Positions 3,299 through 19,419 of a DNA stretch of 19,830 nucleotides are shown here, piece by piece. The position numbers and the translations under genes are program-made. Positions within the stretch are counted from its first letter, which is position 1, and each line of letters starts with the position of its first letter. The notes beneath the pieces were generated by a model, which did not search any database, was not told the origin of the DNA, and was given only the letters and a program-made list of their open reading frames with translations. The stretch is taken from IMG/VR virus record IMGVR_UViG_2537561977_000028, one strand, 5' to 3'. The DNA comes from a virus. Its lineage: Duplodnaviria; Heunggongvirae; Uroviricota; Caudoviricetes.

Positions 3299-4359
3299 CC
3301 GTCCAGAAGAAGATATTTTCACTTGCTGGCATGTCGCCAAAATCCAGCAATATGACGGCAAAATCAGTTATTAATACAGCAGATACAAGCAAAGTTTATC
3401 ATTTGCTGGTGGTCGGAACGGATGCCTTAACCATACCAGAAATCTCGGGCGATGATATTAGCATTGAGAAGGTCAGCGGCTGCGCCAGAAAATTTCTGGT
3501 CGTAGATGATGTCTTCCGCTCGTGTAGTGACTCCACAAAAACATTCGTCCACGCGCGTGACGTTAACGAAATGAGCGCGATGTACTGTGCTTCTGGTTCT
3601 TCCAATAGTGAGTTTTCGGAGTCCATAAAAAAGAGCTTGCCGTTATGCGGCAACACGGTTTATGGTTATAAGGCACCTCATAAAACGGGTGCCGGGATTG
3701 GCGTCCTGAAAATTCTGAAGGCGACATATGACGCGCCGAGCGTCTTTTTTTATGTCGTAGGTCTGACTCACCCATTTTTTGGGCGTTGGTGTATAATCCA
3801 GCGCCTTTGTCAATCAATGGTGGCTCAGGCGGGGGCTTCTTCGGAAGCGCCGGTATCCTTCAGAGCCGGTTACGCCAACCCTGTCTGGGCTACCACCAGC
3901 GAAATTGGCGTTTCCGGTGGTAGCGTAACCTGCTATCTGAAGGAGGCTGCCACATGCTGGCTACTACCCCTACCCAAAAACCGCAATTTATCTGGATTAT
4001 CGCCGCAGTTCGCCGCGATTGCCCGACAATTACCGCCAAAATTCATCATATTGCTGCCGAGTCTGAACGCGATGCTCGCCGTTCTCTGGTGCGCGATCAC
4101 GTCTGCTTTTTTGCTGGTCGTATCCGCATGGAGGTGGCACATGATTAAAACCTACGATGTGCATATGGATCCCCTCGAACGCACAAGCCAGATCATCACA
4201 CTGACAGAAGTGATTAACGACATTCTGGTGAGCAACTCTCCCTCACGAGACGAAAGACTGAAGGCGTTACTCGCGATATTGGATCTCGCCGTTCGTGACG
4301 TTCATTTCCTGCTGGAAGGTGGCGAAATGCCAGGAAAAACGGGGGCAACCAATGAATAA
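3292..4359 (+). CDS. Open reading frame of uncertain extent (355 codons without stop); probably coding only in its 5' part
   Basis: ATG overlaps the upstream stop (ATGCTAA). Frame 1 is purine-rich at codon position 1 up to about 3950, then uses rare codons (CTA CTA CCC CTA, AGG, ATA) where frame 3 (3954..4148) looks coding. See findings. Confidence 0.3.
3954..4148 (+). CDS. Small hypothetical protein, 64 aa
   Basis: AGGAGG at 3941-3946, 7 nt before the ATG. Codons are mostly high-frequency NNC/NNG types. Stop overlaps the next ATG (ATGATTAA). Confidence 0.5.
   Translation: MLATTPTQKPQFIWIIAAVRRDCPTITAKIHHIAAESERDARRSLVRDHVCFFAGRIRMEVAHD
4141..4359 (+). CDS. Small hypothetical protein, 72 aa (internal start within the long frame-1 ORF)
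   Basis: GGAGGTGG precedes the ATG at 4141. Translation [30 protein letters not shown]... is protein-like. Stop overlaps the next start (ATGAATAA). Confidence 0.45.
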   Translation: MIKTYDVHMDPLERTSQIITLTEVINDILVSNSPSRDERLKALLAILDLAVRDVHFLLEGGEMPGKTGATNE

Positions 4360-4546
4360 CTCAATTAATGCCCCTCGACTTACGTCCGCACTTCAATTAA
4401 TCGAGCAAGCAGCGACTGTCCTGGTTGCTGTCAGTCTTTCGGCTGAAGAAATGGACGCTGCTGATGTCGTGGATGCGATTAAAGCGTGCTCATCTTTGGT
4501 TAACGATGCCCGTGCAGAGCTGGTAATTCTTGGGGGTGAAAAATGA
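4352..4546 (+). CDS. Small hypothetical protein, 64 aa
   Basis: ATG at 4352 preceded by GGGGG and overlapping the upstream stop. The ORF-track entry 4295..4546 is likely over-extended. Confidence 0.5.
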   Translation: MNNSINAPRLTSALQLIEQAATVLVAVSLSAEEMDAADVVDAIKACSSLVNDARAELVILGGEK

Positions 4547-4806
4547 ATATCAACTTAATTTATCGTCATCCGCGTGAGCTGGAAATTGAATCATTGCTGG
4601 GGCGTGAAGAGCCATATCCAGACACATTCACTCCCGCAGATTGCGCGACTGAACGGCTTACCAGAGCGCGCACAGGTCTGGTTCATGTGATGAATGAGAT
4701 TATTCCCTCGGTGGGAGGGGAACAGGCGACAGTAATCAATAGCTGGCTACAAAAAGTTACCTCCCTGATAGATATCAGTTTAATCGATGTGGAGAGTGCG
4801 AAATGA
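4543..4806 (+). CDS. Small hypothetical protein, 87 aa
   Basis: Start overlaps the upstream stop (ATGA) and its own stop overlaps the next ATG at 4803; part of a translationally coupled chain. Confidence 0.55.
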   Translation: MNINLIYRHPRELEIESLLGREEPYPDTFTPADCATERLTRARTGLVHVMNEIIPSVGGEQATVINSWLQKVTSLIDISLIDVESAK

Positions 4807-4920
4807 CCAACATCCAGCTCATTGAAGCGCAATGTCGCATCGAACAGGTTCAGACTGTTTTAGGGTTCTGGCTTGAAGGGGCCATCCCCATGAAGTGGTC
4901 AACAAAAACTGGCCACCGAG

Positions 4921-6068
<1,148 letters not shown>

Positions 6069-6269
6069 TATGGCACCTGTGTTGTTCTGAGGTGAGCATA
6101 TCACCTCTGTTCAGGTGGCCAAATTCAGTAAACCACTTCACCAGCAACAGAGACAAGTTAATGATTGGCGCGGTTATGTCACTGCTCAATGGCGTACCAG
6201 AAGCTATTCAGGAAGCAGACGAATTGTTGGGCAAATATGAGTTACAGAATCATTCAGGCGAGGCGAAAC

Positions 6270-6872
6270 ATGAATAATTTCTTAACCTTCCATGCAGAAG
6301 CAACGCCTGACGGCGTAAACATCATGTACCGCAGCAACGATGGCATGACAGAACGCGTTGAGGCCGTTTCATATATTGATGCCGTAAATCGTCTGGATGC
6401 CGGGGATTATGACGATAAACCAGATGAAGGTATGTCAATACATCTTGCTATTGCCGATGGCGGCAACCAGGGATATTTCGATTACACATCACAGCATAAC
6501 GTCATTATGTGGAGATGGCTGATCGCAACAGTATTCATGCTGGAAATGAGAGAGGAAAACGGCACTGTCAGCATCATTGATGATACTGGCAATCCTTCCG
6601 AAGTGGCTGTTTATTCCAACGGCATCGTCGCCATGCCGCTGTATCCAGTAGCAGAGCGCCTCGCTATGGCAAACAACATTGAGGGCGCGATGATAGAACG
6701 TTTTGGCATCGAGTCTGGCACAGAACGCGCCATCATTTTCTACAGAGCCATGATGGATGTGGAACAAGGAGCACTGACTCCATTTGGTCGTGAAACGCTT
6801 GCTGAACTTCACAACAGCTTTATAGCTGAACTGAATGAAAACGGCATGCCAGCGGAACCAGTGACGCACTGA
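6270..6872 (+). CDS. Hypothetical protein, 200 aa
   Basis: ATG at 6270 overlaps the stop of the disrupted small gene (ATGAATAA). The ORF-track entry starts at 6165 but the coupling pattern favours 6270. No recognisable motif. Confidence 0.55.
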   Translation: MNNFLTFHAEATPDGVNIMYRSNDGMTERVEAVSYIDAVNRLDAGDYDDKPDEGMSIHLAIADGGNQGYFDYTSQHNVIMWRWLIATVFMLEMREENGTVSIIDDTGNPSEVAVYSNGIVAMPLYPVAERLAMANNIEGAMIERFGIESGTERAIIFYRAMMDVEQGALTPFGRETLAELHNSFIAELNENGMPAEPVTH

Positions 6873-6882
6873 GGATGGAGCC

Positions 6883-7224
6883 ATGATTACTAAAAATTTC
6901 CGACTGAATGCGCTGGCAAATAAGTATGCGTCGGCACTGTATAACCACATTACCTCCACCAGCGGCGGGGACTATTTCATGGTTCATGCGGACGACAAGG
7001 CCGTACGTGTGGAAATCGTCAATGGAGTAAAAGGCGTTCGCAGCCTGATCGATAGCTACACACTGGCTGCCATGAAAGTGTTCTACCCGCAGTGGGAAAC
7101 CGTGGGGATCGAGCTTCTTGATCGTTGCGTCGCTAAGGACGGATTGACTGACGTCGGGCGTGAGATATGGCAAAGCATGGTTAATGACATGGGCGCAACT
7201 GTAGCGGGAGGTTCTCATGCGTGA
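6883..7224 (+). CDS. Hypothetical protein, 113 aa
   Basis: Plus-strand ORF in the operon upstream of the primase; stop overlaps the next start. Confidence 0.55.
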   Translation: MITKNFRLNALANKYASALYNHITSTSGGDYFMVHADDKAVRVEIVNGVKGVRSLIDSYTLAAMKVFYPQWETVGIELLDRCVAKDGLTDVGREIWQSMVNDMGATVAGGSHA

Positions 7225-7588
7225 AAATGCAGAAATGGCGCTTAGCTCCGCAATCGGAGAGCAGGTGGCAAAGATTGCTGGTGCTGTGTGGATTCATAAC
7301 CTTCATTCTACTGGTGAAGAGAAAATGGCAATTCAGACGCCAGAGGGACGCACCATTACTACATCTCTGAAGCCGTCAGATGTTTGTGATCTGATTTGCG
7401 CATTCATGTACCCAGCAATGAGGACTGTCCACGGCGATAAGTGGAAACTTGCGACAACCGCTGAATTTGATATGTGGCTAAACAATGATGGCATGCTGAC
7501 TGATTACGGAATAACCAAGTGGCAGATGCTGGTTAGCCATATCGCAAACGCTATAGACCACGTGGGGTACGGTGATGCGAAACATTGA
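7217..7588 (+). CDS. Hypothetical protein, 123 aa
   Basis: Plus-strand ORF overlapping the primase start by 17 nt. Confidence 0.55.
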   Translation: MRENAEMALSSAIGEQVAKIAGAVWIHNLHSTGEEKMAIQTPEGRTITTSLKPSDVCDLICAFMYPAMRTVHGDKWKLATTAEFDMWLNNDGMLTDYGITKWQMLVSHIANAIDHVGYGDAKH

Positions 7589-10331
7589 TCTTATCCGTCA
7601 GGTTATCAGTGCGTCTGAAAACAACTGGCCTCATGTGCTGGGCTGCCTGAACATAAATGTCCCTGACTCTCCGCGCCGTCATGCTCCCTGCCCTGCATGT
7701 GGGGGCAAAGATCGATTCCGGTTCGATGACAACGGGCGCGGTAGCTTCATCTGTAATCAGTGCGGCGCTGGTGATGGGCTGGATTTAATTAAACGCGTAA
7801 ATAACTGCGACACAACAGAGGCGGCGCTTCTTGCCGCTGATGTTCTGGGTATTGATTACCGGACAACGGAAACACCAGAAGCCACCAGCCAGAAACGGGA
7901 ACAACTGGAAACCGAGCGCCAGCGACGCGAACAGGAGCGCCTGAAAAGGGCAGAGAAGGACGAACAACAAAGACGGGATACGTTTTCCCGTCAGTTTGAT
8001 GACATGCGCAGAAAGGCTGTAAACGGCAAATCTGATTATCTGGTTGCGAAAGGGGTAGGTGATTTTACATTCCCCGTGTTGCCCGATGGATCTCTGTTGC
8101 TGGCGCTGGTGGATAAATCCGGCGCAGTCACAGCAGCACAGACTATTACCTCACATGGTGAAAAAAGACTCCTGACAGGTTCAGCAAAGCGGGGGGCATA
8201 TCACGCCATAAACGCACCAGAAACAACACAGAGCATCTTAATCGCAGAAGGGCTGGCAACGGCATTATCTGCCCATTTAATTCGTCCAGAGGCGCTGACA
8301 GTGGCGGCGATTGATGCCGGGAACCTGTTATATGTCGCCCAGGTACTGCGGGATAAATATCCATCAGCACAAATCATCATTGCTGCGGATAACGACCACA
8401 GCGAAGGAAGACAAAACACGGGGAGAATAGCAGCAGAAAAAGCAGCTTTATCTGTTTCTGGATGGGTGGCATTACCCCCCACAGATCACAAAGCAGACTG
8501 GAATGATTACCACCAAAAACACGGCATTAAATGCGCCACAGAAGCGTTCAATAAGTCAATGTACCAACCACAGGGTAATGGCGTGAAACAGGAGCCACAG
8601 ACCATTGAGGGAAGCGATTTTAAGGTTATGGATACCGACCCACTGAAACCAAGAATAGAAAGCCGCGAGGATGGTATTTATTGGGTATCTCCGAGAGCTG
8701 ACAGCCAGAGTGGAGAAATCATCAATAACGAAAGCTGGTTATGTTCTCCGTTAAGCGTTATCGGTACTGGCAGAGACGATAAAGACCAGTATCTCATTCT
8801 TCGCTGGCTGTCGTTTGGTTCTGAAACGCCGACAACCGCTGCCATTCCACTGGCTGATATTGGTGAACGTGAAGGATGGCGCACACTTAAAGCTGGTGGG
8901 GTAAATGTCACGACCAAAAGCAGCCTCAGAGCAATACTGGCAGACTGGCTACAACGCAGTGGCTCTCGTGAATTGTGGCGTGTTGCTCATGCCACTGGCT
9001 GGCAATGCGGAGCGTACATCATGCCTGATGGGGAAATCATCGGAACACCTGAAAATCCTGTGCTGTTCAGCGGGAGAAGCTCAGCCGCAGCCGGATATAC
9101 CGTCTCAGGGAGCGCGAAAAGCTGGCGTGATAACGTGGCGCGTCTGGCCTTTGGTAACTATTCAATGATGACCGGGATCGGCGCAGCACTGGCAGCGCCA
9201 TTGATTGGGCTGGTGGGCGCTGACGGGTTCGGCATTCATTTCTATGAGCAGTCGAGCGCAGGTAAGACCACCACGGCAAACGTGGCGAGCAGCTTATACG
9301 GCAACCCTGATTTACTGCGGCTGACGTGGTACGGAACCGCGCTGGGGCTGGCAAATGAAGCCGCCGCCCACAATGACGGACTAATGCCGCTTGATGAAGT
9401 TGGTCAGGGCGCTGATCCTGTCAGTGTTTCACAGTCTGCCTATGCGTTATTTAACGGTGTAGGGAAACTGCAAGGCGCTAAAGATGGTGGAAACCGGGAT
9501 CTAAAACGCTGGCGTACAGTGGCAATCAGCACTGGAGAAATGGATTTAGAAACATTTATCGCTACTTCCGGGCGAAAAACCAAAGCCGGGCAACTGGTGC
9601 GACTGCTGAATATTCCGTTGAGTAAAGCAGTACGCTTTCACGATTACCAGAACGGAAAACAGCACGCAGACGCACTGAAAGACGCTTACCAGCATCACCA
9701 CGGCGCAGCCGGGCGTGAGTGGATTAAATGGCTGGCAGACCACCAGCAACAGGCAATTAAAACTGTTCGTGACTGCGAAAGCAGATGGAGAAGTCTGATC
9801 CCATCCGATTATGGTGAGCAGGTTCACCGTGTAGCCGCGCGATTTGCCATTCTGGAGGCCGCATTGCTGTTAGGCGAGGTTGTAACAGGCTGGGATGCTC
9901 AGACATGCCGTGATGCGATACAGCACAGCTATAACGCATGGTTGCGCGAGTTCGGCACAGGTAACAAAGAACATCAGCAGATTATTGAACAAACGGAGGC
10001 ATTTCTTAATGCCTATGGGCTTAGCCGTTTTGCACCATTTCCATACAGCCCGGCAGATTTGCCCATCAAAGATTTGGCCGGATACCGTCAGCGTGGAGAA
10101 CATGACGAAAGCCCAATGATTTTCTACACATTCCCGGCCACATTTGAAAAGGAGATCGCATGTGGTTTCAACGCAAAACAGTTTGCTGAAGTGTTGAAAA
10201 AAGCCGGGATGCTAACCCCACCAAACAGCGGTCGTGGATACCAAAGAAAATCACCACGTATTCAGGGACGACAAATAAACGTTTATGTACTCAATTACCA
10301 GCCAGGAGATTATAACTCATCTGAAGAATGA
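7572..10331 (+). CDS. P4-alpha-like replicative primase-helicase (zinc ribbon + TOPRIM primase + C-terminal P-loop NTPase of DUF927/D5 type), 919 aa
   Basis: Cys4 zinc ribbon CPACGGKDRFRFDD...FICNQCG; TOPRIM motifs ILIAEGLATAL and IIIAADND; P-loop-like FYEQSSAGKTTT. Likely start is the ATG at 7575 (the track starts at GTG 7572). Confidence 0.85.
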   Translation: MMRNIDLIRQVISASENNWPHVLGCLNINVPDSPRRHAPCPACGGKDRFRFDDNGRGSFICNQCGAGDGLDLIKRVNNCDTTEAALLAADVLGIDYRTTETPEATSQKREQLETERQRREQERLKRAEKDEQQRRDTFSRQFDDMRRKAVNGKSDYLVAKGVGDFTFPVLPDGSLLLALVDKSGAVTAAQTITSHGEKRLLTGSAKRGAYHAINAPETTQSILIAEGLATALSAHLIRPEALTVAAIDAGNLLYVAQVLRDKYPSAQIIIAADNDHSEGRQNTGRIAAEKAALSVSGWVALPPTDHKADWNDYHQKHGIKCATEAFNKSMYQPQGNGVKQEPQTIEGSDFKVMDTDPLKPRIESREDGIYWVSPRADSQSGEIINNESWLCSPLSVIGTGRDDKDQYLILRWLSFGSETPTTAAIPLADIGEREGWRTLKAGGVNVTTKSSLRAILADWLQRSGSRELWRVAHATGWQCGAYIMPDGEIIGTPENPVLFSGRSSAAAGYTVSGSAKSWRDNVARLAFGNYSMMTGIGAALAAPLIGLVGADGFGIHFYEQSSAGKTTTANVASSLYGNPDLLRLTWYGTALGLANEAAAHNDGLMPLDEVGQGADPVSVSQSAYALFNGVGKLQGAKDGGNRDLKRWRTVAISTGEMDLETFIATSGRKTKAGQLVRLLNIPLSKAVRFHDYQNGKQHADALKDAYQHHHGAAGREWIKWLADHQQQAIKTVRDCESRWRSLIPSDYGEQVHRVAARFAILEAALLLGEVVTGWDAQTCRDAIQHSYNAWLREFGTGNKEHQQIIEQTEAFLNAYGLSRFAPFPYSPADLPIKDLAGYRQRGEHDESPMIFYTFPATFEKEIACGFNAKQFAEVLKKAGMLTPPNSGRGYQRKSPRIQGRQINVYVLNYQPGDYNSSEE

Positions 10332-10356
10332 GCTTCTTCATGTGCGTAGAAAAGGT

Positions 10357-10467
10357 GTTGGTTCAGTTGGTTCAGTTGGTTCAATTTGTAAAGAGTATTG
10401 TTTTATAAGGATTTTATTCTTTTTATTGAACCAACACTGAACCAACAACACGGTATTTTGAACCAAC
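10357..10467. promoter_or_regulatory. Iteron cluster A (candidate replication origin): 3 tandem GTTGGTTCA, 43-bp AT-rich spacer, 3 inverted TGAACCAAC
   Basis: GTTGGTTCA at 10357-10365, 10366-10374, 10375-10383. AT-rich spacer 10384-10426. TGAACCAAC at 10427-10435, 10438-10446, 10459-10467. Lies directly after the primase gene. Confidence 0.65.
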
Positions 10468-10788
10468 ACAATGTGACTGAATTGATGCGCACAACACCTG
10501 GCTGGCATCAGAGAGTGTTTTACGAGACTTTCGTAAAATCCTGTGTACAAGGGCGTGACGTTTTTGAAAGTGAGCACTACGAAATTTTCGTAGTTCAAAA
10601 AACAGCCTCTGAGAAGTTGTTATGCCTGTTCAGCAAACCATCCGCATAGCTGATCGCGAATCAAATTACCAATGGAGCCAGAAGCAAGGGCAGAACTGAA
10701 AAGTGCCTGCCGTGAAGAGTAATGCGACACCATAAATATAGTTTTTAGAGTCCATAAAAAACCTGTCAAAACCTGACACACAGAACGA

Positions 10789-10820
10789 TGCCACCAGCTA
10801 CTGAGCGGTGGCATTTTTTT
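10789..10820 (+). terminator. Rho-independent terminator candidate
   Basis: Stem TGCCACC / GGTGGCA (7 bp) with an 11-nt loop, followed by A + T7 (10814-10820). Confidence 0.6.
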
Positions 10821-10915
10821 GTGCTATTTGTTTCATATTTTGCAATTACGATGATGAATATTGCGATTTGTGAAACTATAATAACTGTTGTTTTATACAG
10901 TTCTAAGGGGGCGTT

Positions 10916-11077
10916 ATGGCTATTTCAGTAAAGCCGGTATTGATAAGTGAGAAGCAAATGGAAGCGATAAAGAAAATTCAGGAAGAGCAGCGTAAAAAAT
11001 CAGGAATTGGAGTAGCGCCAACTCTGCATGAAATTGCTCGAGGGTTAATAGATAAGGCGCTGGCAGGCTGTATGTGA
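10916..11077 (+). CDS. Small hypothetical protein, 53 aa (below the ORF-track cutoff); possible regulator
   Basis: ATG at 10916 preceded by AGGGGG. Translation MAISVKPVLISEKQMEAIKKIQEEQRKKSGIGVAPTLHEIARGLIDKALAGCM. Sits between the terminator and the cargo operon. Confidence 0.35.
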   Translation: MAISVKPVLISEKQMEAIKKIQEEQRKKSGIGVAPTLHEIARGLIDKALAGCM

Positions 11078-11093
11078 AAATGGATGGCATCGC

Positions 11094-11495
11094 ATGGAAC
11101 TAAAATTTATTGATAACCCTGTGCGATTACAGGCCTTTCTTAACGATCCTGGCAATACCGAAAATATTGTTGAGCCGGGGCACACGTACTACATCAAGCC
11201 TGATGCGGTATATCTCGGCATCTACGAAGGATTGGTGCTGGCTGGCGTTCATGAAGTGCGTAACTTCTGGCATAGCATTGTTGAATGCCATGCGGTGTAC
11301 GACCCCGGATTCCGTGGTGAATATGCACTGCAAGGGCATCGATTATTCTGCAAATGGCTTCTCGAAAACTCACCATTCCTTAACAGCATCACTATGGTTC
11401 CTGACACCACGAAATACGGACGGGCAATTATCCGTTTGCCCGTGTTGGTCACCTTGATGATGCTTATATCAGATGTGGTAAACCCGTCGGCGTAA
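11094..11495 (+). CDS. Hypothetical protein, 133 aa; first gene of the cargo operon
   Basis: Protein-like translation. The overlapping frame ORF 11110..11457 is Trp/Cys-rich and looks non-coding. Confidence 0.6.
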   Translation: MELKFIDNPVRLQAFLNDPGNTENIVEPGHTYYIKPDAVYLGIYEGLVLAGVHEVRNFWHSIVECHAVYDPGFRGEYALQGHRLFCKWLLENSPFLNSITMVPDTTKYGRAIIRLPVLVTLMMLISDVVNPSA

Positions 11496-11538
11496 CGCTT
11501 TATCAGTTAACTCGGCAACAATATAAGGAATTCAGCGA

Positions 11539-12216
11539 ATGTTAATTACCCATATAGCTCATAAACATCTCAATCGTGCCGTATACGAAAAAGGCGGTGA
11601 TGGTGGTGCCTCTAAAGCTCAGGCGAAGGCCCAGCAGCAGGCAATTGATTTGCAGCGCGAGCAGTGGAATACGGTGATGAATAATCTCAAGCCGTATGCA
11701 GAAGTCGGATTGCCTGCTTTACAACAACTACAAGGACTGATGACTCTGGAAGGGCAGAATAAAGCCGCGAATGATTTCTTTGGTTCTGGTTTATATAAAA
11801 CACAGGCAGATCAGGCCCGTTATCAGAACCTTGTCTCAGCAGAAGCTACCGGGGGGCTTGGCTCAACAGCTACCAGTAACCAGTTATCTTCCATTGCGCC
11901 CATGCTTTATAACAATTGGCTTAGTGGGCAAATGCAAAATTATGGAAACCTGCTAAATGTCGGGATGAATGCGGCATCAGGGCAGGCAACGGCAGGGCAA
12001 AACTACGCCAATAATACCGGACAACTCTTGCAGGGGCTTGGCGCTATTCGTGCAGGTCAGGCGCAGCAGCCATCCAGTCTTGCGCGTGGTATTGGTGGGG
12101 CAGCATCAGGCGCTTTAGCGGGTGCGCAACTTGGTTCCGTTGTTCCTGGAATAGGTACTGCGGCAGGCGCTATTGGTGGTGGGCTTATTGGTCTTGTTGG
12201 GGGGCTTGGATTCTAA
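11539..12216 (+). CDS. Gln/Ala-rich protein with Gly-rich hydrophobic C-terminus, 225 aa; virion-internal/ejection-protein-like
   Basis: AAGGA RBS about 8 nt upstream. C-terminus GIGGAASGALAGAQLGSVVPGIGTAAGAIGGGLIGLVGGLGF. Stop overlaps the next start (TAATG). Confidence 0.7.
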   Translation: MLITHIAHKHLNRAVYEKGGDGGASKAQAKAQQQAIDLQREQWNTVMNNLKPYAEVGLPALQQLQGLMTLEGQNKAANDFFGSGLYKTQADQARYQNLVSAEATGGLGSTATSNQLSSIAPMLYNNWLSGQMQNYGNLLNVGMNAASGQATAGQNYANNTGQLLQGLGAIRAGQAQQPSSLARGIGGAASGALAGAQLGSVVPGIGTAAGAIGGGLIGLVGGLGF

Positions 12217-13535
12217 TGGCGACATGGCAACTTGGCGGGCTGCCTAGCATGGCACCGCAAAATGATAATGCTCCTCGTTCTTCCGTTCCTCAGCCTGTGC
12301 AGTATCAGCAGCAGCCAAACGTAGGTTTAATGGCGCTACAGGGGCTAAGAGGCGTTGCTGAGATTAATCAGCAGGCGCAAATTTCCCAGCAGCTAAAAGA
12401 ATATCAGGCACGGTTGGGTAGTGCGGTAGCTAATAATGATCGTGTTGGCGTGCAGAAGTTAATGGCCCAGTATCCCCAGTTTATGGCTGATTCTCAAAAA
12501 CAGATGGGATTCATTGATGCTGAGCAAAATCGGCAGACCGCTGACGCTGCCATGAATCTGCGTCTTGCGTCACAAACTGGAGATCCACTGACCATGCAGA
12601 AGGCCATTCAGCAGGCAAATCCAGTATTACAGCGATTTGGTCTTCCTGCTGAAGAGGTTTATCAGTCTTGGCAGAATGCCCCACAGGAATTCAACAGAAT
12701 CACTGACCTCATCCACCTCCATGCTGATCCAAATAGTTACTTTAGTGTTCAAGAGAAGCAGCAAGGGCAGAGTATTGCACAGCAGAACGCAGATACATCT
12801 GCATATAATGCTCAGGTTAATGCGGAACAGGGTAATCGGCGTCTCGATATGGAGCAGTTCAAAGTCCTATCCGATAACCAGCTACGCACGAGAGAAATGG
12901 TTCTGAAAGCACGACTTGGACGTGCTCAAAATGACATCGAGAGAGACAAGCTCAATGCTGAACTGAGCAAGGTACAGCAGGCGAAAGTGGAGAAGATGAA
13001 CGATAAAATTAATACTGTTGCAGGTAACATCGACTCCTTGAACTCTGCGCTTGAAGTGGGTCATGAACTGGCGGGAATTGTAGGGAAACATCCTTCGGCC
13101 GTTACCCGTTCGCAGAACTATAACCCCCTGACGCTGGGGTTTGGATTCCTTCCTGATGTAGCAGAAGACACACGAAGCCTACGCGCCAAAGCTGATGAAT
13201 ACAACCTAAAGGTTATTCTGCCTAGCCTCAAAGGGACTTTTGGCTCTAACCCAACCGAAGGGGAAAGGGCTGCCCTTATGCAATCTCAAAATGGCATTAA
13301 GTCAGCAACCAGCAATGAGGCATTTTTGCGAGAGTTGAATAAAGCGCAGGACGTAATTATTCGAATGCAGAAACGACAGATTGCCGGGCTCGGTATTCCT
13401 GTAACCAAATCTAAGGACGAAGAAACTGATACCAAAATGCTGTTGCAGGATCCTTCTCTGGTTAAGGATTATGTGACCGCACATGGCTATCTGCCGGAAA
13501 GTTACTATCAGGCAAAACTTAAGGGATGGCAATGA
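12216..13535 (+). CDS. Gln-rich coiled-coil protein, 439 aa; virion-internal/ejection-protein-like
   Basis: Long Q/A/N-rich heptad-like stretches (QQAQISQQLKEYQARLGSAVANN..., LDMEQFKVLSDNQLRTREMVLKARLGRAQNDIERDKLNAELSKVQQAKVEKMNDKIN). Overlaps neighbours at both ends. Confidence 0.7.
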   Translation: MATWQLGGLPSMAPQNDNAPRSSVPQPVQYQQQPNVGLMALQGLRGVAEINQQAQISQQLKEYQARLGSAVANNDRVGVQKLMAQYPQFMADSQKQMGFIDAEQNRQTADAAMNLRLASQTGDPLTMQKAIQQANPVLQRFGLPAEEVYQSWQNAPQEFNRITDLIHLHADPNSYFSVQEKQQGQSIAQQNADTSAYNAQVNAEQGNRRLDMEQFKVLSDNQLRTREMVLKARLGRAQNDIERDKLNAELSKVQQAKVEKMNDKINTVAGNIDSLNSALEVGHELAGIVGKHPSAVTRSQNYNPLTLGFGFLPDVAEDTRSLRAKADEYNLKVILPSLKGTFGSNPTEGERAALMQSQNGIKSATSNEAFLRELNKAQDVIIRMQKRQIAGLGIPVTKSKDEETDTKMLLQDPSLVKDYVTAHGYLPESYYQAKLKGWQ

Positions 13536-16252
13536 TGGCACAACTGACAGAAAAACAGAAAGCCTATTCCCGTCATCTCGATGAAAAATATGGTTTCCCA
13601 TCAGGGACGATGGAAACATTAGTTGGCAATGAATCTAGTGGTAACGGAAGTGCCGAGTCACCGAAAGGAGCTAGAGGATTTGCTCAACTGATGCCCTCAG
13701 TAATGAGTGATGCTGGTTATCGTGGAACAGATCCGCGCTCACTGCCATTTGAAAAGCAAATGGATATCGCAGCAAACCATCTCAATAAAGGAATGAAGCG
13801 ATTTGGTGATATAGGTATGGCATTGGCTGGGTATAATTCTGGCTATGCTCGTATTAATGCCGTAAGAAACGGTAAATCTACACTGCCAGATGAAACGGCT
13901 AATTACGTAAGTAAATTTGCAGATGCCGGAATAATCCCTGATGACAGTGAAATCTTGCAGTTTGCACAAACCAGTCAACATCGCAATCTTCAGCAGCCTG
14001 ACTACTCAGAGCTTGATAAAGAAATCTCTCAGGTGGGAGATATTTCTGCATGGGAAGCAAAACGTCAGCAATTTAAGAACATAGAAGCAGGACTACCAAC
14101 AGCCAGTTCATGGGAGCAGAAAAGAGCTCATTTTCTCGCCGATGAAAATGCCGGGGAACCGCAGCAGCAAGTAGCCAAGTCTAACCTTAATCCTGAGATG
14201 GAATATCTTTCGCCAGGACTGAAAGCTGCGCCAGAGCAGATGGCCAGAGGGATTGCTAATATACCGTTTGATGTAATGGACGCAGGCGTGGGGGTAGTCA
14301 ATGCGGCGCAATCAGCCGGAGCATGGGCAGCTCAGAAGCTTGGTGTGGGTGATGGTACATACACGCCCATATCACCTGTCTTTCGCCCAGTAGACCAACC
14401 TACAGATCCATACGCGCAGGCTGGTGAGCAGCTAGCACCTTACCTTATTACAGGATTAGGTGCAGGAAAGGCAGCTACCGCAGCTTCTTCAGTTGCCAAC
14501 GCTCCACGTGCTGAACGTGCGGCCACAAAGGTGGCTAGTATGTTGGCAGAAAACCTGCCAGGTACATTGGTGAACGCCCAAAAGAACGGGCAGATCAGCC
14601 CAGAAGACCTAGCAAAAGAGACAGGTATTGGCCTAGCAGGATCGCTAGGAGCACGCGCTTTAATAAAGAGCGGACAGACAGCCAGTGACGTAATGCGAGA
14701 TGTATTGCGGAGTAATACAAATCAATCAAGCTATGTGTTAGGGGCAGCAAATACTCTGGAAACCGCCAATGATGTATCGAAAGCAGCGCGTTCTGCCGTA
14801 GGCCGAGAGCATATCGCATCGCAGGCATCAAACGTCAGAGATGATGTCGCTAAGGCGGCGAAAATCACTGGTATTAATATCAACACCCTGACGCCTGGAA
14901 TGCGCTCAGGTAGTCGTGGAATTGCCCAAGCAGAAGGTGTTCTGGCATCAACTCCTGGGAATGTTCAGGATGCTCACCTTACGGCCTTCAATGAAATATC
15001 CTCAAAGTTGAATAAGCAGTTGTCTGATTTCGGTGCTGATTCTGGAAGCGCATCAGAAAAAAGCGCAGCAATTAAAGAGCGCATCATCGCGAGCCTCAGT
15101 GATATGAAAACAGCAGAGAATATGGCATGGGCAGAACTGCGAAGCACGATGCCACGCGAAAGGATGAAAATGAGTAATGGGATGGCTGTCGTCCAAGCAG
15201 AAAAAGCAGCCAATGTTCCACTCAGCCCGGAGATGAAACAGTTTCAGGCTGCCAACAACCAAGGTGGCGGCATAACCTTCGACGGGATGAAGGCATGGCG
15301 TGCTAAGTTTGCTGATGCTGAACAAGCAAACACCCGGGCAGGTAAGGCCAATGCCGCCCGGGTTGCCGGAGAAATGCGCAGAGCTATCACTGATGACATG
15401 CGCATCATGGCTGAAAAAGGAAACTTCCTCACAGAATGGCAGAAAGCTAACGATCTCTCTAAAAGTTACATTATCGCCAAACAAAATGCCGAATCTGTTT
15501 TTGGTCGAGATCTCGCATCAGACGCTATGGTAAGAAAAGGTGCCGATACGCTTAAGGCATCCGCAAACACTGGAACGGGAGCTTTTCACCGTCTTATCTC
15601 CGCGCAGCCGGAAGCAGAACGCCAACCAGCAATAGCATCTATTCTTCAGCATGCTGTGGCGCAGGGAGAGAAGGGAGGAATCGGTGAAGAGTCTGGTATC
15701 CAGTATTTTGCCAAGCTCATGACCCAGCAGAATGTAAACGCCATCAGTCGTCATGCGCCAGATCTCGGTAGAATGATGAAAGAGTTCGGTGTACTCGCTA
15801 AAGCCAGCACCAGACCGCAGCGATACGTAGAGCGCACGGGAAGAACAACTGAGGCTCTCAAAACGCTCGATTCAGGCCTTCCAAAGATCGTCGGCGTGAT
15901 TATGAACGGAGTTCAACAGTCAGGTGCGATCGCTGGAGGCTTTGGCGGTGGTGTAATTGGTTCGATTAGTGGTTTGGTTGCTGGTGGCGCGCTGAGAAAT
16001 ACTGTGGCTAAGATTGGGGCGACAAGAAGTGGTCGATATGCGATAGAGAAAGCCGTTCAGGAAGCTACAAAAGCAGTGCGCGCAGGGGCATCACCAGCAG
16101 CGATCGCCGCAGCAGAGAAACGATTTTCGGCCAATAAAATTGCCATGAAAGCAATTCGTGATGCCGTTGGGGCTGAAGAATTCGTGAAACTGACAAGGGC
16201 CGGGATTGTAGCTACCCTCAGTGGCATGAAAGATGTTAGCGAATGGGAATAG
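13526..16252 (+). CDS. Large protein with N-terminal lytic transglycosylase (SLT) domain, Ala/Gln-rich central region and Gly-rich hydrophobic C-terminal segment, 908 aa
   Basis: SLT family-1 motifs: catalytic E-S in LVGNESSGNGSAESPKGARGFAQLMP and the AYNxG-type motif ALAGYNSGYARINAV. C-terminal GAIAGGFGGGVIGSISGLVAGGAL. Real start may be the ATG at 13532 or 13535, which are better spaced from the AAGGGA. Confidence 0.75.
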   Translation: MAMMAQLTEKQKAYSRHLDEKYGFPSGTMETLVGNESSGNGSAESPKGARGFAQLMPSVMSDAGYRGTDPRSLPFEKQMDIAANHLNKGMKRFGDIGMALAGYNSGYARINAVRNGKSTLPDETANYVSKFADAGIIPDDSEILQFAQTSQHRNLQQPDYSELDKEISQVGDISAWEAKRQQFKNIEAGLPTASSWEQKRAHFLADENAGEPQQQVAKSNLNPEMEYLSPGLKAAPEQMARGIANIPFDVMDAGVGVVNAAQSAGAWAAQKLGVGDGTYTPISPVFRPVDQPTDPYAQAGEQLAPYLITGLGAGKAATAASSVANAPRAERAATKVASMLAENLPGTLVNAQKNGQISPEDLAKETGIGLAGSLGARALIKSGQTASDVMRDVLRSNTNQSSYVLGAANTLETANDVSKAARSAVGREHIASQASNVRDDVAKAAKITGININTLTPGMRSGSRGIAQAEGVLASTPGNVQDAHLTAFNEISSKLNKQLSDFGADSGSASEKSAAIKERIIASLSDMKTAENMAWAELRSTMPRERMKMSNGMAVVQAEKAANVPLSPEMKQFQAANNQGGGITFDGMKAWRAKFADAEQANTRAGKANAARVAGEMRRAITDDMRIMAEKGNFLTEWQKANDLSKSYIIAKQNAESVFGRDLASDAMVRKGADTLKASANTGTGAFHRLISAQPEAERQPAIASILQHAVAQGEKGGIGEESGIQYFAKLMTQQNVNAISRHAPDLGRMMKEFGVLAKASTRPQRYVERTGRTTEALKTLDSGLPKIVGVIMNGVQQSGAIAGGFGGGVIGSISGLVAGGALRNTVAKIGATRSGRYAIEKAVQEATKAVRAGASPAAIAAAEKRFSANKIAMKAIRDAVGAEEFVKLTRAGIVATLSGMKDVSEWE

Positions 16253-16402
16253 ACGCTCTAACTAACAAAACCATAATAGCCAAGGACGGCATACTGATAT
16301 TGAGCCAACTATCAAAATTCCATATCACATTACGAGCCTGTGGCTTACATTCGCTTACAGTGATGATAATTTATAACCACGCAATTCTTAGGTGAGATTA
16401 TC

Positions 16403-17101
16403 ATGATTAAAAATCTTCTTTTAATATTATCCCTGTCATTATTGGCTGGATGCGTACAAAAACCGTTAGTAACGGTCAATGCTTTATCTTCCGGGCAATC
16501 TGTCGGTAAGAAGTTCTTGATCATCCCCGCAAGCCAAGAACTTTGGAACACCAAACAGATTGAATACACTCAAATAGCTACGGTAGTAGCCGCCAGTTTA
16601 TCAAGCCAAGGATATACACAAGTTAAAGATGAAAAATTGGCTGACCAGGTAATTCTCTTGAACTTTTTGAGAAGCGGGGCCATTTCAAATACTCGTAATG
16701 TAACCATCCCAATATACGGGCAAACTGGTGTGAGCTCAGCAACAACGTACGGAAACTCGAACACCACGTTCAATAGTTATGGTGGTGGCTACGGTACAGC
16801 TAATACCACTGGAACGGCAACAACAGTTTATACGCCTACTTATGGAATTACTGGCGCGTATAACACAACTGTGACGGACACGTTCTACGGCGCAGGGGTG
16901 ATACTCCAGTCGTTTGATGCCAAGGCCTATCTCAATAATAGGCAGATTAATATGTTATGGAAAGTTGGTAGCTCAGTCGTCTCGCAACAGTCTGATGGAA
17001 TTGCTGATTACAAGGGGTTGGCGAGAATAGCCGCTAGCTATGCCGGGAAAAATACAGAAGGTGATATAACTTTTAATGTTGACCCTAAAGCACCAAATTA
17101 A
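16403..17101 (+). CDS. Lipoprotein, Thr/Gly/Asn/Tyr-rich, 232 aa
   Basis: Signal peptide with lipobox MIKNLLLILSLSLLAG-C. GGTGAG 6 nt before the ATG. Low-complexity central region TTYGNSNTTFNSYGGGYGTANTTGTATTVYTPTYG. Locally AT-rich compared with its neighbours. Confidence 0.7.
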   Translation: MIKNLLLILSLSLLAGCVQKPLVTVNALSSGQSVGKKFLIIPASQELWNTKQIEYTQIATVVAASLSSQGYTQVKDEKLADQVILLNFLRSGAISNTRNVTIPIYGQTGVSSATTYGNSNTTFNSYGGGYGTANTTGTATTVYTPTYGITGAYNTTVTDTFYGAGVILQSFDAKAYLNNRQINMLWKVGSSVVSQQSDGIADYKGLARIAASYAGKNTEGDITFNVDPKAPN

Positions 17102-17108
17102 CTAATAA

Positions 17109-17129
17109 GCCCGGTACGCCGGGCATTTT
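17109..17129 (+). terminator. Rho-independent terminator candidate after the lipoprotein gene
   Basis: GCCCGG-TACG-CCGGGC hairpin followed by ATTTT, 8 nt after the stop codon. Confidence 0.55.
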
Positions 17130-17244
17130 GCCCCCTATTATTCATGAATCGCTTTTTCTAGAAGGTATGCGACAAACGTTAAGTGACATTGCCTACACAT
17201 TCGGGGCGGGATTTCAAATCCGCTCCCAGTTGATGGGGCCGTTA

Positions 17245-17614
17245 CAGTACGCGCATATCCGCTTTATGTGAAACAGGAAGATTTTTCTGATATCACAGCC
17301 ACCGCAAAACACCAATTTCGTGACCAGTACGCGCGCGAGGTGTATCAGTTGCAAAATTTTTTGCAGCTGTGTCCGACCAGTACGCACGCGATGGCGGGGA
17401 GCACCATAAAACTGTTCTCTACATAAGACAGAGTGGTGGTGATGTGTTGATTATCGGCGTATATGCGCACAGGACGCGCTATGACGATGTTTTATGCACA
17501 TGTATCTGGTGTGATAAATCGCGTTACATGACCTCTCATGTTGTGCTGGTGGTTATCACGACTTTCTGAATCTGGCCTTTGCCTGATATTTTGCGACAAG
17601 TACGCGCGCGTAGC
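17245..17614. repeat. Four dispersed copies of a ~16-bp GC-rich motif GAC(C/A)AGTACGC(G/A)CGCG, partly palindromic (TACGCGCGCGTA)
   Basis: Copies at about 17245-17254, 17322-17337, 17375-17390 and 17595-17610. The region between copies 2 and 3 holds the palindrome TTGCAAAATTTTTTGCA. Confidence 0.5.
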
Positions 17615-17638
17615 ATCGACAGCATACACATTGGATAT

Positions 17639-17860
17639 TCATTTTGTGACCAATGCGATAAGTAGCGGGATAAGAATTGATAAAATCAACAGGCCGATGA
17701 TCCACTTTTGATTTTCACTGGCCTTATCTCTATTTTCATCCATCTTATCAATAATTCGACGCTCCAAGCCGTGCATATCACCGCGAATGGCAATCATCTC
17801 ATTGCGAACATCCGAGAAGTGGTTGGCTTGATGTTCAATGTGTGGCGTTCTGCCTTTCAT
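17639..17860 (-). CDS. Small tail-anchored membrane protein, 73 aa (XhlA/holin-like architecture)
   Basis: Charged N-terminal region plus a single C-terminal transmembrane segment (WIIGLLILSILIPLLIALV). GAGGA RBS upstream on the minus strand. Family name is a guess. Confidence 0.5.
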   Translation of the reverse strand: MKGRTPHIEHQANHFSDVRNEMIAIRGDMHGLERRIIDKMDENRDKASENQKWIIGLLILSILIPLLIALVTK

Positions 17861-17939
17861 TCCTGATCCTCACCTATCGTCACCACCTGCTGGTGTATAA
17901 AGGTATTGGCCCAAGCAGCTTTCCAATGGGCACTCATGT

Positions 17940-18395
17940 TTATACGCTGACCTTACAATCAATCACCGCTTTTAACTTTTCAGCATTGCTTCCCTGACGC
18001 TTCCACGCGCTGTAAATATCTTTATCCCACGCTTTACCAGCTTTTGTTTGATAGCCTGCTTCATTGATCCGTTCAGCTATCACACGCCCATTATCAAATC
18101 CCTGTCGGATGGTATCGGCAATGATCTTTATAACTGCCGTTTCGTTATATGGCTTTGGTGGGATGTTCGGCTTTCCGGCAATAAGCGACGCAGCGGCTTT
18201 TTCCATGCGCTCCACCAGCCCAAGCATTCGTGAATCAATAGACTTTTCCGGCTGTCCCAGCTTCATGCGAATCGCATCAACAAGCCAGGAGGTTTTATCC
18301 CCTCCAGAAGCGAGAACAGACCGATTAAACTCATCCTGCAATTCAGATGGGATGCGGAACGCGACCAGATTAGATTTGCTCATTGCAAAGACCAT
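17940..18395 (-). CDS. Ribbon-helix-helix (Arc/CopG-like) N-terminal domain protein, 151 aa
   Basis: N-terminus SNLVAFRIPSELQDEFNRSVLASGGDKTSWLVDAIRMKL has the RHH beta-strand/helix pattern. Co-directional with the downstream membrane-protein gene. Confidence 0.55.
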   Translation of the reverse strand: MVFAMSKSNLVAFRIPSELQDEFNRSVLASGGDKTSWLVDAIRMKLGQPEKSIDSRMLGLVERMEKAAASLIAGKPNIPPKPYNETAVIKIIADTIRQGFDNGRVIAERINEAGYQTKAGKAWDKDIYSAWKRQGSNAEKLKAVIDCKVSV

Positions 18396-18497
18396 ATCAG
18401 TGAGTAATATCCATACAGTATACCACTGTATAACACTGTTATACGCTCAAATATCAGCCAGAAAATAACGGACCAATCACAAAGCTATCGCTGTGTT

Positions 18498-18627
18498 GTT
18501 GGTTCAGAGCTGGGCTGTGTTGGTTCAAAATGAGTTGATGTTGGTTCAATATTTCAGAAAAAACACAATAAAAACAACGATATTTACAAATTGAACCAAC
18601 TGAACCAACTGAACCAACTGAACCAAC
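18498..18627. promoter_or_regulatory. Iteron cluster B: 3 spaced GTTGGTTCA, 43-bp AT-rich spacer, 4 tandem TGAACCAAC; inverted copy of cluster A
   Basis: GTTGGTTCA at 18498-18506, 18519-18527, 18540-18548. AT-rich spacer 18549-18591. TGAACCAAC at 18592-18600, 18601-18609, 18610-18618, 18619-18627. Its reverse complement aligns with cluster A. Confidence 0.65.
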
Positions 18628-18663
18628 ACCTTTTTGCTTATCTATATAATCTGAGAGGCAGAA

Positions 18664-18951
18664 ATGATAAGGGACAGGAAAGCTGAAGAGCTGGAGTCAA
18701 AAGGGCTATACCGGAGAGTTGCCGCACGATGGGCAGAAGTCATGATGCTGGCAGATGGCGATAAAGAACGTGAACATGCAGCAAACAGACGCTCTGAATG
18801 TATCCGTAAGGCGGCACGCCCACCAGCAACTACAGACAGATTCGGAGATTTAAGACAGGCAGTTAAGCGGACTCATTCGGCTCTTGGTATGGATGAGGAA
18901 GCGAGAGGGTACTTCAGGCGTTATCGCGATAAAGATTGCCAGAGACAGTAA
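18664..18951 (+). CDS. PerC-family transcriptional regulator-like protein, 95 aa
   Basis: N-terminus MIRDRKAEELESKGLYRRVAARWAEVMM matches my memory of PerC/Pch-family proteins common in P4-like islands. GAGAGG RBS; TATAAT at 18645-18650 just after the iterons. Confidence 0.55.
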   Translation: MIRDRKAEELESKGLYRRVAARWAEVMMLADGDKEREHAANRRSECIRKAARPPATTDRFGDLRQAVKRTHSALGMDEEARGYFRRYRDKDCQRQ

Positions 18952-19419
18952 TGCTCTCTCTGTTTTGGCAAATTACCCCTCACTTTGAAGGGATCGGAGC
19001 TATAAAAATGGTTTTAGGTACATTCCTCAAATTGAGGATTGTGGGAAAACCAATGGGTTAGGCTTTTCCCCCAATGGGGGTTTTCGAAAGAATCAATGGG
19101 TTAGTCCATCGTGCAAATTTGCACCCTGCCAGCCAACGCAATTTCTCGTTGGCGAAAATATCAGGTATTTACTGAACGAACGGTCTACCAGTCTGTTCAG
19201 TTACCAGTTGTACATGGCTGCTTTATGTGCAAATGGTGGTGAGAGAAAATTGTTTGGGGGTACTTTTGGGGGTATCTCCAAATACGCAATGGGGAAATGT
19301 CTTTATATATCAATGTATTTTTATTGTTTGTTTTGTTCCTATTATCGCATTTGTGCCATTGTAACCTTGGCAATTCATCAAAATACTGTTCTGACATCAG
19401 GCAGTGCAGGTGCAGCTAT

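Follow-up and report, generated by a model that had tools for sequence, protein, structure and literature searches.

A chromosomal island of Escherichia coli, contained in IMG/VR virus record IMGVR_UViG_2537561977_000028 (19,830 nucleotides, analysed at full length and here called the window), carries two iteron units in mirror orientation, cluster A directly behind the gene of the initiator PriRep and cluster B 8.2 kb further downstream. The best explanation, to which we assign a probability of about 0.6, is that B is the mirror half of a bipartite PriRep origin region that has been split by variable late and accessory genes. By its gene content and ends the element is classed as an EcCIMP1-like phage-inducible chromosomal island (PICI) at tRNA-Thr, and cluster A as a canonical origin of the type described for PICIs and for the pathogenicity islands of Staphylococcus aureus (SaPIs). 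Among related islands a three-way covariation is observed, in which a short segment of PriRep, the iterons of the unit beside its gene (unit 1) and the iterons of the second unit (unit 2, in the window cluster B) change together. These sequence comparisons suggest, for a large PriRep lineage of enterobacteria, an origin region of two modules in mirror symmetry, which are separable by kilobases around a variable slot.

PICIs move genes for virulence and defence at high frequency, and the efficiency of their transfer is set by how well they replicate after helper induction. The PICI origin has so far been described as a single iteron/A+T unit beside pri-rep. Cluster A belongs to this already known kind of origin, while the second mirror module, its covariation with the initiator and its separation from the first around a variable slot are undescribed in the literature searched. 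The components of the reading merit different degrees of confidence. That B is a cluster of binding sites for PriRep and is under selection in islands of the PriRep type appears, from the comparisons, highly probable; that it takes part in replication is judged somewhat better than an even bet; that it regulates its neighbouring genes, which would be compatible with a role in replication, is possible but doubtful.

Layout of the two iteron clusters

The first-pass annotation of this DNA had noted two inverted iteron clusters, and both sequence reading and pattern search found its coordinates and layout exact. Cluster A, or unit 1, begins with three tandem copies of GTTGGTTCA on the plus strand (10357..10383, starting at 10357, 10366 and 10375 and thus with a 9-bp period), a layout kept in relatives. 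There follows a spacer of 43 bp and 84% A+T (10384..10426), the presumed melting region, in which the motif ATTTGTAAAG, conserved across genera, abuts the tandem iterons, and then three spaced reverse iterons TGAACCAAC on the minus strand (10427..10467, with starts at 10427, 10438 and 10459, that is 11 and 21 bp from start to start). Some 30 bp past the unit lies the motif CCTGGCTGGCA (10497..10507, plus strand). Cluster B, or unit 2, has these parts in the opposite order: three spaced forward copies of GTTGGTTCA (18498..18548, plus strand, starting at 18498, 18519 and 18540 with a 21-bp period), a spacer of again 43 bp and 81% A+T (18549..18591), whose mirror motif CTTTACAAAT/ATTTACAAAT abuts the tandem iterons, and four tandem reverse iterons TGAACCAAC (18592..18627, minus strand), of which other E. 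coli have 2-4 copies. The terminal tandem iterons are followed by a conserved T-rich/TATA motif, TTTTGCTTATCTATATAA (18632..18649, plus strand), which is unique in the window and is found after unit 2 in elements of several iteron types.

All 13 exact copies of GTTGGTTCA in the 19.8-kb window lie inside clusters A and B. When one mismatch is allowed the window holds 18 matches, a number never reached in 200 shuffles, which gave 4.96 on average and 12 at most. The relation of B to A as its mirror image, also claimed from the outset, holds as well: B, when reverse-complemented, can be aligned with A, with inverted-repeat arms of 48 nt (92% identity), 40 nt (95%) and 38 nt (82%), and the two spacers agree at 26 of 43 positions in mirror orientation as compared with 16 of 43 in direct orientation. 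Since the homology stops about 7 bp outside the iterons, B copies the origin unit alone, without the flank of the primase gene. The number of tandem iterons is variable, with seven in unit 1 of an Erwinia metagenome-assembled genome (MAG; L051, 3988-4050; L numbers denote related loci), four in the window's B, one above the three of most E. coli copies, and 2-3 in other E. coli, a variation consistent with replication slippage. GC skew tracks gene orientation and is uninformative on initiation.

Origins of E. coli PICIs lie directly 3' of pri-rep (Fillol-Salom et al. 2018, for EcCICFT073), and for EcCICFT073 and SaPIs the literature has shown that pri-rep-ori drives autonomous replication, with Rep binding and melting the origin. 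In SaPI Rep, as the work of Ubeda and co-workers is cited in PMC9371898, a C-terminal winged-helix domain binds the iterons and two self-loading hexamers flank the A+T region. Cluster A shares with these origins its place at the 3' end of pri-rep (it starts 26 bp past the PriRep stop codon), the inverted iteron sets, the A+T region and an initiator in which a Rep/Cch-type helicase is fused to a primase, so that the earlier reading of A as a classic origin layout directly after a primase-helicase gene is borne out. Opposed iteron sets surround an A+T-rich region in A (3+3) and in B (3+4) alike; B, 8.2 kb downstream, does not lie directly 3' of pri-rep. Herein lies the difference from the published description, which has one origin by the gene, whereas the window adds a complete mirror unit 8.2 kb away, past accessory genes. 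The literature searched contained no mention of a second or distal PICI origin module, which is not proof of its absence. As a separate observation, stretches some 78-80% identical to cluster A alone (query 1051-1172) occur, with neither annotation nor a PriRep match, in O111:H8 and other E. coli, and may be further orphan or divergent origin units.

PriRep and the second module across relatives

PriRep (7572..10331, plus strand, 919 amino acids) consists of a Zn-ribbon/Toprim primase, a DUF927 helicase and a C-terminal DNA-binding region. Its Pfam matches are Zn_Ribbon_Prim, Toprim_3 and DUF927; over its N-terminal 360 residues it shares 33% identity with the primase domain of the P4 alpha protein (E 9e-42), and similarity to the SaPI 'pathogenicity island protein' 8TCH (E 1e-11) and to Cch 5DGK spans residues 403-814. 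When the last 220 residues were modelled with AlphaFold (pLDDT 82.6), the sole significant PDB match was Cch 5DGK (E 1e-4, probability 1.0, 200 aligned columns). On sequence and model together PriRep is predicted to be a Rep/Cch-type initiator with a C-terminal iteron-binding domain.

The comparative sample comprised 64 loci with PriRep relatives across Enterobacterales, together with several E. coli loci, and iterons were detected de novo. When 49 C-terminal domains were aligned and grouped by iteron, the iteron type tracked an 8-residue segment near the PriRep C-terminus, in the window residues 890-897 (YQRKSPRI; 10239..10262, plus strand), which the model places in a hairpin after helix 169-178. 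All elements with GTTGGTTCA have the segment (Y/F)QRKSPR(I/V), seven of seven TGTTGTCTC elements have YQGRV-RE, those of the CGGGTTA type RYK(K/R)KAL, and those with TTATCCC, TTGTCCC or TTAGCCC have WQIR(T/M)PRL(K/R)H. In a Yersinia pekkanenii locus (L033, ~4300-14200) three full copies of the composite iteron region occur and the PriRep C-terminal domain is fused to an N-terminus annotated as an HNH endonuclease (P0103), an arrangement that might have arisen by duplication or by insertion of a homing endonuclease into the replication module.

Unit 1 has a near-fixed grammar in the 49 loci analysed for modules: three forward iterons (F-9-F-9-F), some 54 bp from start to start, and then R-11-R-21-R, the last spacing being kept in nearly all of them. 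A second module recurs, composed of three 21-bp-phased sites, a spacer and tandem reverse iterons (R-9-R-9-R). Eight iteron cores were found (GTTGGTT, GTTGTCT, GTCGGTT, CGGGTTA, GTGGGTT, TTAGCCC, TTATCCC and CTTGTCC), and in every element having both modules the core of the second is that of the first; in 48 of the 49 loci clusters of a non-cognate core were absent. In unit 2, compared across nine genera, conservation is 97% in the iteron columns and 62% in the 12-bp gaps that separate them; the sites retain their 21-bp phasing, and the 12 bp of the spacer beside the tandem iterons (…CTTTACAAAT) are conserved at 90%. The spaced sites of unit 2 flip orientation among relatives (FFF, RFF, RRF), their 21-bp spacing remaining unchanged.

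The recurrence of unit 2 bears on the possibility, considered and rejected, that B is the relic of a second island with its own initiator: no primase remnant lies beside B, and B-like units occupy the same place in many genera. The first-pass annotation had itself allowed that the second cluster might belong to a separate degraded element; this is not so, for B is conserved, is of the resident iteron type and has kept its position in many genera.

A second possibility is that the clusters act as RNA hairpins, in termination or processing, or else are bound by the protein encoded next to B, a 151-residue product, rather than by PriRep. Transcripts of the clusters would indeed be strongly folded, with z = -6.3 in the case of A and -4.3 to -4.5 in that of B, and the 151-residue gene abuts B. 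Such folding, however, follows automatically from inverted repeats; no U-tract succeeds the clusters, Rfam gave only far-sub-threshold miRNA-hairpin matches caused by the palindrome, and the flips of site orientation at constant 21-bp spacing would break a hairpin, not a set of binding sites. As for the neighbouring protein, its gene comes with GTAAGACA-type repeats of its own and is present without iterons in L020, L022 and L037, while the iteron type follows the PriRep C-terminus. Either version is thus very improbable.

The distance between the modules differs among relatives. In about 22 of the 49 loci (about 22 of the 34 having both) the two are adjacent, within ~300 bp, and in 12 of the 49 they are 0.4-8.8 kb apart, namely in the window, other E. 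coli, Lonsdalea, Chimaeribacter, Rosenbergiella, Cedecea, Serratia, Limnobaculum, the Erwinia MAG, Enterobacter and Leclercia. Because adjacency is the usual state among relatives with both modules, the kilobase-scale separation of A and B is probably derived, the product of a split composite origin and not a designed ori/crr pair. The ori region of EcCICFT073, functional by experiment, is itself composite, its last part being tandem reverse iterons immediately ahead of the following gene. In strain D5, as in cf-PICI-type islands of O157:H7, PriRep is followed by unit 1, unit 2, ssb and perC in this order. The spacers of separated second units are A+T-rich in 12 of 12 cases (63-82%) and often as long as that of unit 1 (45/45, 47/47 or 54/54 between iteron cores); among 18 adjacent composites, by contrast, the second spacer is short (36-38 bp) and G+C-rich in 10. 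The A+T-rich spacers fit a need, in a unit away from unit 1, for a melting region of its own, with the qualification that these loci are not phylogenetically independent. A motif like CCTGGCTGGCA follows unit 1 in most relatives, whatever their iteron type, and also the first iteron cluster of islands with a DUF5906-type Rep (L073, 7818-7830, and L074); it is a possible candidate for a host-factor site or a priming site.

Orphan copies of B and the function of the second unit

Several observations weigh against a bipartite PriRep origin. The 49 loci share phylogeny, so that the counts given above do not represent independent events, and in about 13 of them unit 1 stands alone in the available flank. 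More directly, the E. coli islands L074, L075 and L076 share cargo, the 151-residue gene, B and perC with the window, and L076 has in common with it the tRNA-Thr site as well, together with the genes immediately upstream of that for Rep. In all three the Rep is of the DUF5906 (P4-alpha-like) kind, and the iterons that go with it, TGTACCA/TATACCA, form two clusters separated by 1 kb; strain SCU-306 is an example of a carrier of a DUF5906-type island with such a B. These three islands have neither PriRep nor cluster A, and their B is thus an orphan, with three spaced sites in each and tandem copies numbering two plus one mutated (L074), two (L075) and three (L076). In an evenly spaced sample of matches to B, 7 of 18 full-length matches had a single matching place, and all three of those examined were of the orphan type. 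B is therefore not universally tied to its PriRep. It travels with a right-end module of the 151-residue gene, B and perC; the replication module, from these comparisons, is swapped by recombination, and B can persist without its initiator at least for short evolutionary times, the divergence of the orphan copies, about 4%, being too small to judge decay. In the DUF5906-type islands themselves the paired clusters (L074, 6022-6123 and 7129-7232; L073, 7699-7800 and 8806-8910) bracket two small genes, and tandem reverse copies close the second cluster. The split arrangement thus recurs in a further replicon family and may be general for satellite primase-helicase replicons.

Since the orphan persists without its initiator, two alternatives keep appreciable weight. 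According to the first, B is a functionless passenger, a leftover origin half moved by modular recombination and not yet decayed. With this would agree the orphan copies in the DUF5906-type siblings, the ~13 relatives with no detectable unit 2, and the drift of the tandem copies between two and four, one orphan having a mutated iteron. Yet the iterons of unit 2 are intact, phased and cognate in elements whose PriRep is 57-83% identical and whose inter-iteron sequence has diverged, and eight iteron types have changed jointly in both units, whereas a neutral relic would not follow switches of specificity. We regard the passenger as quite unlikely.

According to the second alternative B is mainly an operator, at which bound PriRep would switch the divergent promoters of perC and the 151-residue gene at the start of replication, with no part for B in replication itself. 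The local arrangement lends itself to this. The 151-residue gene (17940..18395, minus strand) is transcribed away from B, and its product, for which there is no Pfam match, has an N-terminus that looks ribbon-helix-helix-like by eye; the gene of the perC-family regulator (18664..18951, plus strand; Pfam PerC, E 2e-32) begins 36 bp downstream of B; and B fills 130 of the 268 bp between the two divergent genes. Moreover, in adjacent composites the terminal tandem iterons and a conserved TTTTGCTTATATATA-like motif always stand immediately upstream of whichever rightward gene follows, be it ssb, perC or a hypothetical one, and B accompanies perC in elements with a different Rep. Against an operator, consensus scans for sigma-70 promoters found none around A or in or beside B, and a TATAAT-like hexamer precedes the start codon of perC by only 13 nt; in the split elements L013, L018 and L019 perC follows unit 1 and not unit 2; and a mirror A+T spacer of matched length with the conserved TTTGTAAA motif is a feature of origins with no obvious use in an operator. 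As the main function of B, an operator is unlikely, to a lesser degree than a passenger.

The homologues of the 151-residue gene adjoin unit 2 in L003, L013, L018, L019, L021 and L074-76 and are far from any iterons in L020, L022 and L037, always with repeats of the gene's own type, and the orientation of the gene is the same in every related locus. The latter is of consequence for a further proposal, raised in the first-pass annotation, that the inverted pair could mediate inversion or deletion of the segment which it brackets, A and B then being the ends of a DNA switch for the cargo. An inverted pair of ~130 bp is indeed present, but a synthetic query for the inverted junction had a full-length match in 0 of 552 genomes carrying the sequences, the orientation of the 151-residue gene is constant as just stated, and no invertase or resolvase domain was found in the open reading frames (ORFs) scanned, the island integrase being the only recombinase; deletion of the intervening DNA is in any case impossible from inverted repeats. 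Such a switch thus has a negligible likelihood and the proposal falls.

A bipartite origin remains the preferred explanation, and its operation may be pictured as follows. On helper induction PriRep would be made, its C-terminal domain reading the 9-bp iteron GTTGGTTCA. By analogy with SaPI Rep, initiator hexamers would assemble on the two inverted iteron sets of A and melt the 43-bp A+T spacer, whereupon the built-in primase of PriRep would start synthesis. The same assembly would form at B, which keeps a complete ori-like unit with its own A+T spacer, so that B could serve as a second or auxiliary initiation site and could be paired with A by the initiator, as in the case of P4 ori and crr. 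A regulatory side-effect at B is plausible, in that B spans a divergent control region and has the TTTTGCTTATCTATATAA motif after its tandem iterons. That PriRep binds at B, that firing or looping takes place there, and that regulation is affected in any way are all steps that we infer. A bolder version, in which A and B form a genuinely split origin, PriRep pairing across the 8-kb loop to license or limit firing and coupling the accessory slot to replication, and in which an orphan B offers a handle for replication in trans, or for interference, by a co-resident PriRep island, strikes us as speculative and improbable.

The parallel with satellite phage P4 deserves closer consideration. The annotation had stated that P4 ori and crr share repeats and lie several kb apart, and the P4 record NC_001609 agrees: crr, two 120-bp direct repeats, is directly 3' of alpha, and ori is 4.7 kb away between divergent genes. 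Both contain type-1 octamers arranged as a spaced repeat or repeats, a spacer of ~35 bp (69% A+T in crr, 83% in ori) and tandem inverted repeats. The window shares with P4 two separated cis clusters of the initiator's repeat, one 3' of the primase-helicase gene and the other in a divergent intergenic region, as well as the sequence of spaced repeats, spacer (~35-43 bp) and tandem inverted repeats at 9-10 bp, and the primase domains are homologous. The differences are no less clear. The helicase and DNA-binding part of alpha is D5_N/DUF5906/Pox_D5, that of PriRep DUF927/Cch-type; crr consists of two 120-bp direct repeats, whereas A and B are single units in mirror orientation; and in relatives of the window element the modules are usually adjacent. 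No homologues of the P4 genes sid, psu, delta and epsilon were found among the ORFs scanned. The parallel is consequently a good analogy for the two-site layout, but the element is a PICI and not of the P4 family, with a helicase and DNA-binding part of the SaPI-Rep/Cch type. We regard the likeness as functional and, through the shared primase domain, partly ancestral. Both P4 sites are reportedly required, and alpha is said to loop between them. Iteron plasmids offer another comparison, auxiliary clusters such as P1 incA and F incC controlling copy number by titration or handcuffing. Like B, these are extra clusters of the initiator's iteron outside the minimal origin; unlike B, they are without an A+T spacer or origin grammar and flank the rep gene.

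The finding is concrete and brings no new principle. For self-loading Rep/Cch-type helicases it raises the question of whether one hexamer loads per module and whether there is communication between modules, and it draws a link from PICI origins to the old and unexplained requirement for P4 ori and crr. A practical use, if a modest one, is that iteron type and the PriRep C-terminal segment can be read from sequence to predict the replicon compatibility of islands.

The bracketed genes and the ends of the island

The left part of the island has the order int, alpA, an antA-type antirepressor gene, an Ash-family protein gene, several small ORFs and PriRep. Right of cluster A follow DUF2824, genes similar to P22 gp7, gp20 and gp16, a 232-amino-acid ORF, leftward ORFs of 73 and 151 amino acids, cluster B and perC. 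The backbone int-alpA-...-pri-rep-ori-perC is that of PICIs. Pfam matches and comparison of the ends show the unidirectional int-alpA-...-pri-rep backbone and the specific tRNA-Thr attL/attR expected of a Gram-negative PICI, and by Pfam and PHROG the only virion genes of phage origin in the island are those for ejection proteins, a full virion gene set not being present. EcCIMP1 itself (Pick, Stadel & Raivio 2025, PMC11773190) excises and is induced and transferred by the P22-like phage Kapi1. With EcCIMP1 the window shares the tRNA-Thr/proA site, int, alpA, antirepressor, Ash, primase, DUF2824, DNA-transfer proteins and perC; it differs in its frameshifted int, and origin and iterons are undescribed in PMC11773190.

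The bracketed late/accessory region (10468..18497, plus strand; Pfam and PHROG) starts with a shared non-coding leader and a 53-amino-acid ORF. Its P22-type ejection cargo, DUF2824 and the gp7-, gp20- and gp16-like genes, occupies 11094-16252, the gp16-like protein having 908 amino acids and an N-terminal SLT transglycosylase domain. Virion ejection genes are unusual in a satellite and match the P22-like helper known for EcCIMP1. The 232-amino-acid ORF (16403-17101) shows very weak similarity to TraT and to DUF4136, a lipoprotein family (E ~0.06-0.09). Since superinfection immunity has been reported for EcCIMP1, a putative surface-exclusion function of this ORF is possible. The content of the slot differs among E. 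coli ABU 83972, NRZ14408, Cedecea and Leclercia: the E. coli strains have P22-type ejection genes with differing B-proximal genes, Cedecea has a P4-like Beta protein (L021, 13614-14729; Beta of the gop-beta-cII locus) and an SLT-domain protein, and Leclercia a tape-measure-like protein. The suggestion made from the single sequence, that the bracketed genes are selected as part of the replicon, is not upheld by a content that varies with strain and genus and is not fixed. In the Leclercia locus L059 a chloramphenicol acetyltransferase gene lies just beyond unit 2 (21771-22448).

At its right end, about 720 bp past B, the island is bounded by the attR core TCCTATTATCG (19337..19347, plus strand), a copy of the tRNA-Thr 3' end, and beyond attR there is a fragment of a chromosomal LysR gene (Pfam). 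The same island is found at tRNA-Thr in E. coli ABU 83972 and in strain 3985, and queries with the region of A or of B matched, at least partly, in about 550-570 of 5,426 complete E. coli genomes. Compared with the intact copy of strain 3985, the integrase gene of the window (1-1214) has a 1-bp deletion at about position 335 which splits it into frames 1-447 and 318-1214, and from this frameshift the copy in the window may be unable to excise. Repeats of the form GGGGGTACTT(T/A)TGGGGGTAT stand near both att ends (window 19256-19275; L002 1452-1475) and a pair of 39-nt direct repeats between perC and attR (window 19023-19104); these are likely, as putative arm-type sites, to serve the integrase or an excision factor. 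The related island L003 (NZ_LT599831.1, 19,226 bp), a separately assembled record named 'phage_14408_2', is circularly permuted, with a perC-to-int (attP) junction, a different integrase and an Abi-family gene in the bracketed slot. The arrangement suggests an excised or concatemeric form in that culture.

In the region of the Ash gene Rfam matched isrK at 67.8 bits and C4 antisense RNA at 79.9 bits (3673-3750; 3813-3900), a pair reminiscent of the RNA immunity system of the P4/P1 type. The non-coding leader after cluster A has, at 10535-10604 and 10740-10761, further copies of short repeats that lie just upstream of the pair (3537-3632), which hints at a second target of a C4/isrK-type RNA that would control the cargo operon; no isrK-like match appeared in this leader at E<=1. 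Finally, on a contig labelled Chryseobacterium sp. (L008, CACSKA010000004.1) there is a PICI of typical enterobacterial kind, its PriRep 79% identical and its iterons GTTGGTTCA; the label may reflect assembly contamination or mislabelling.

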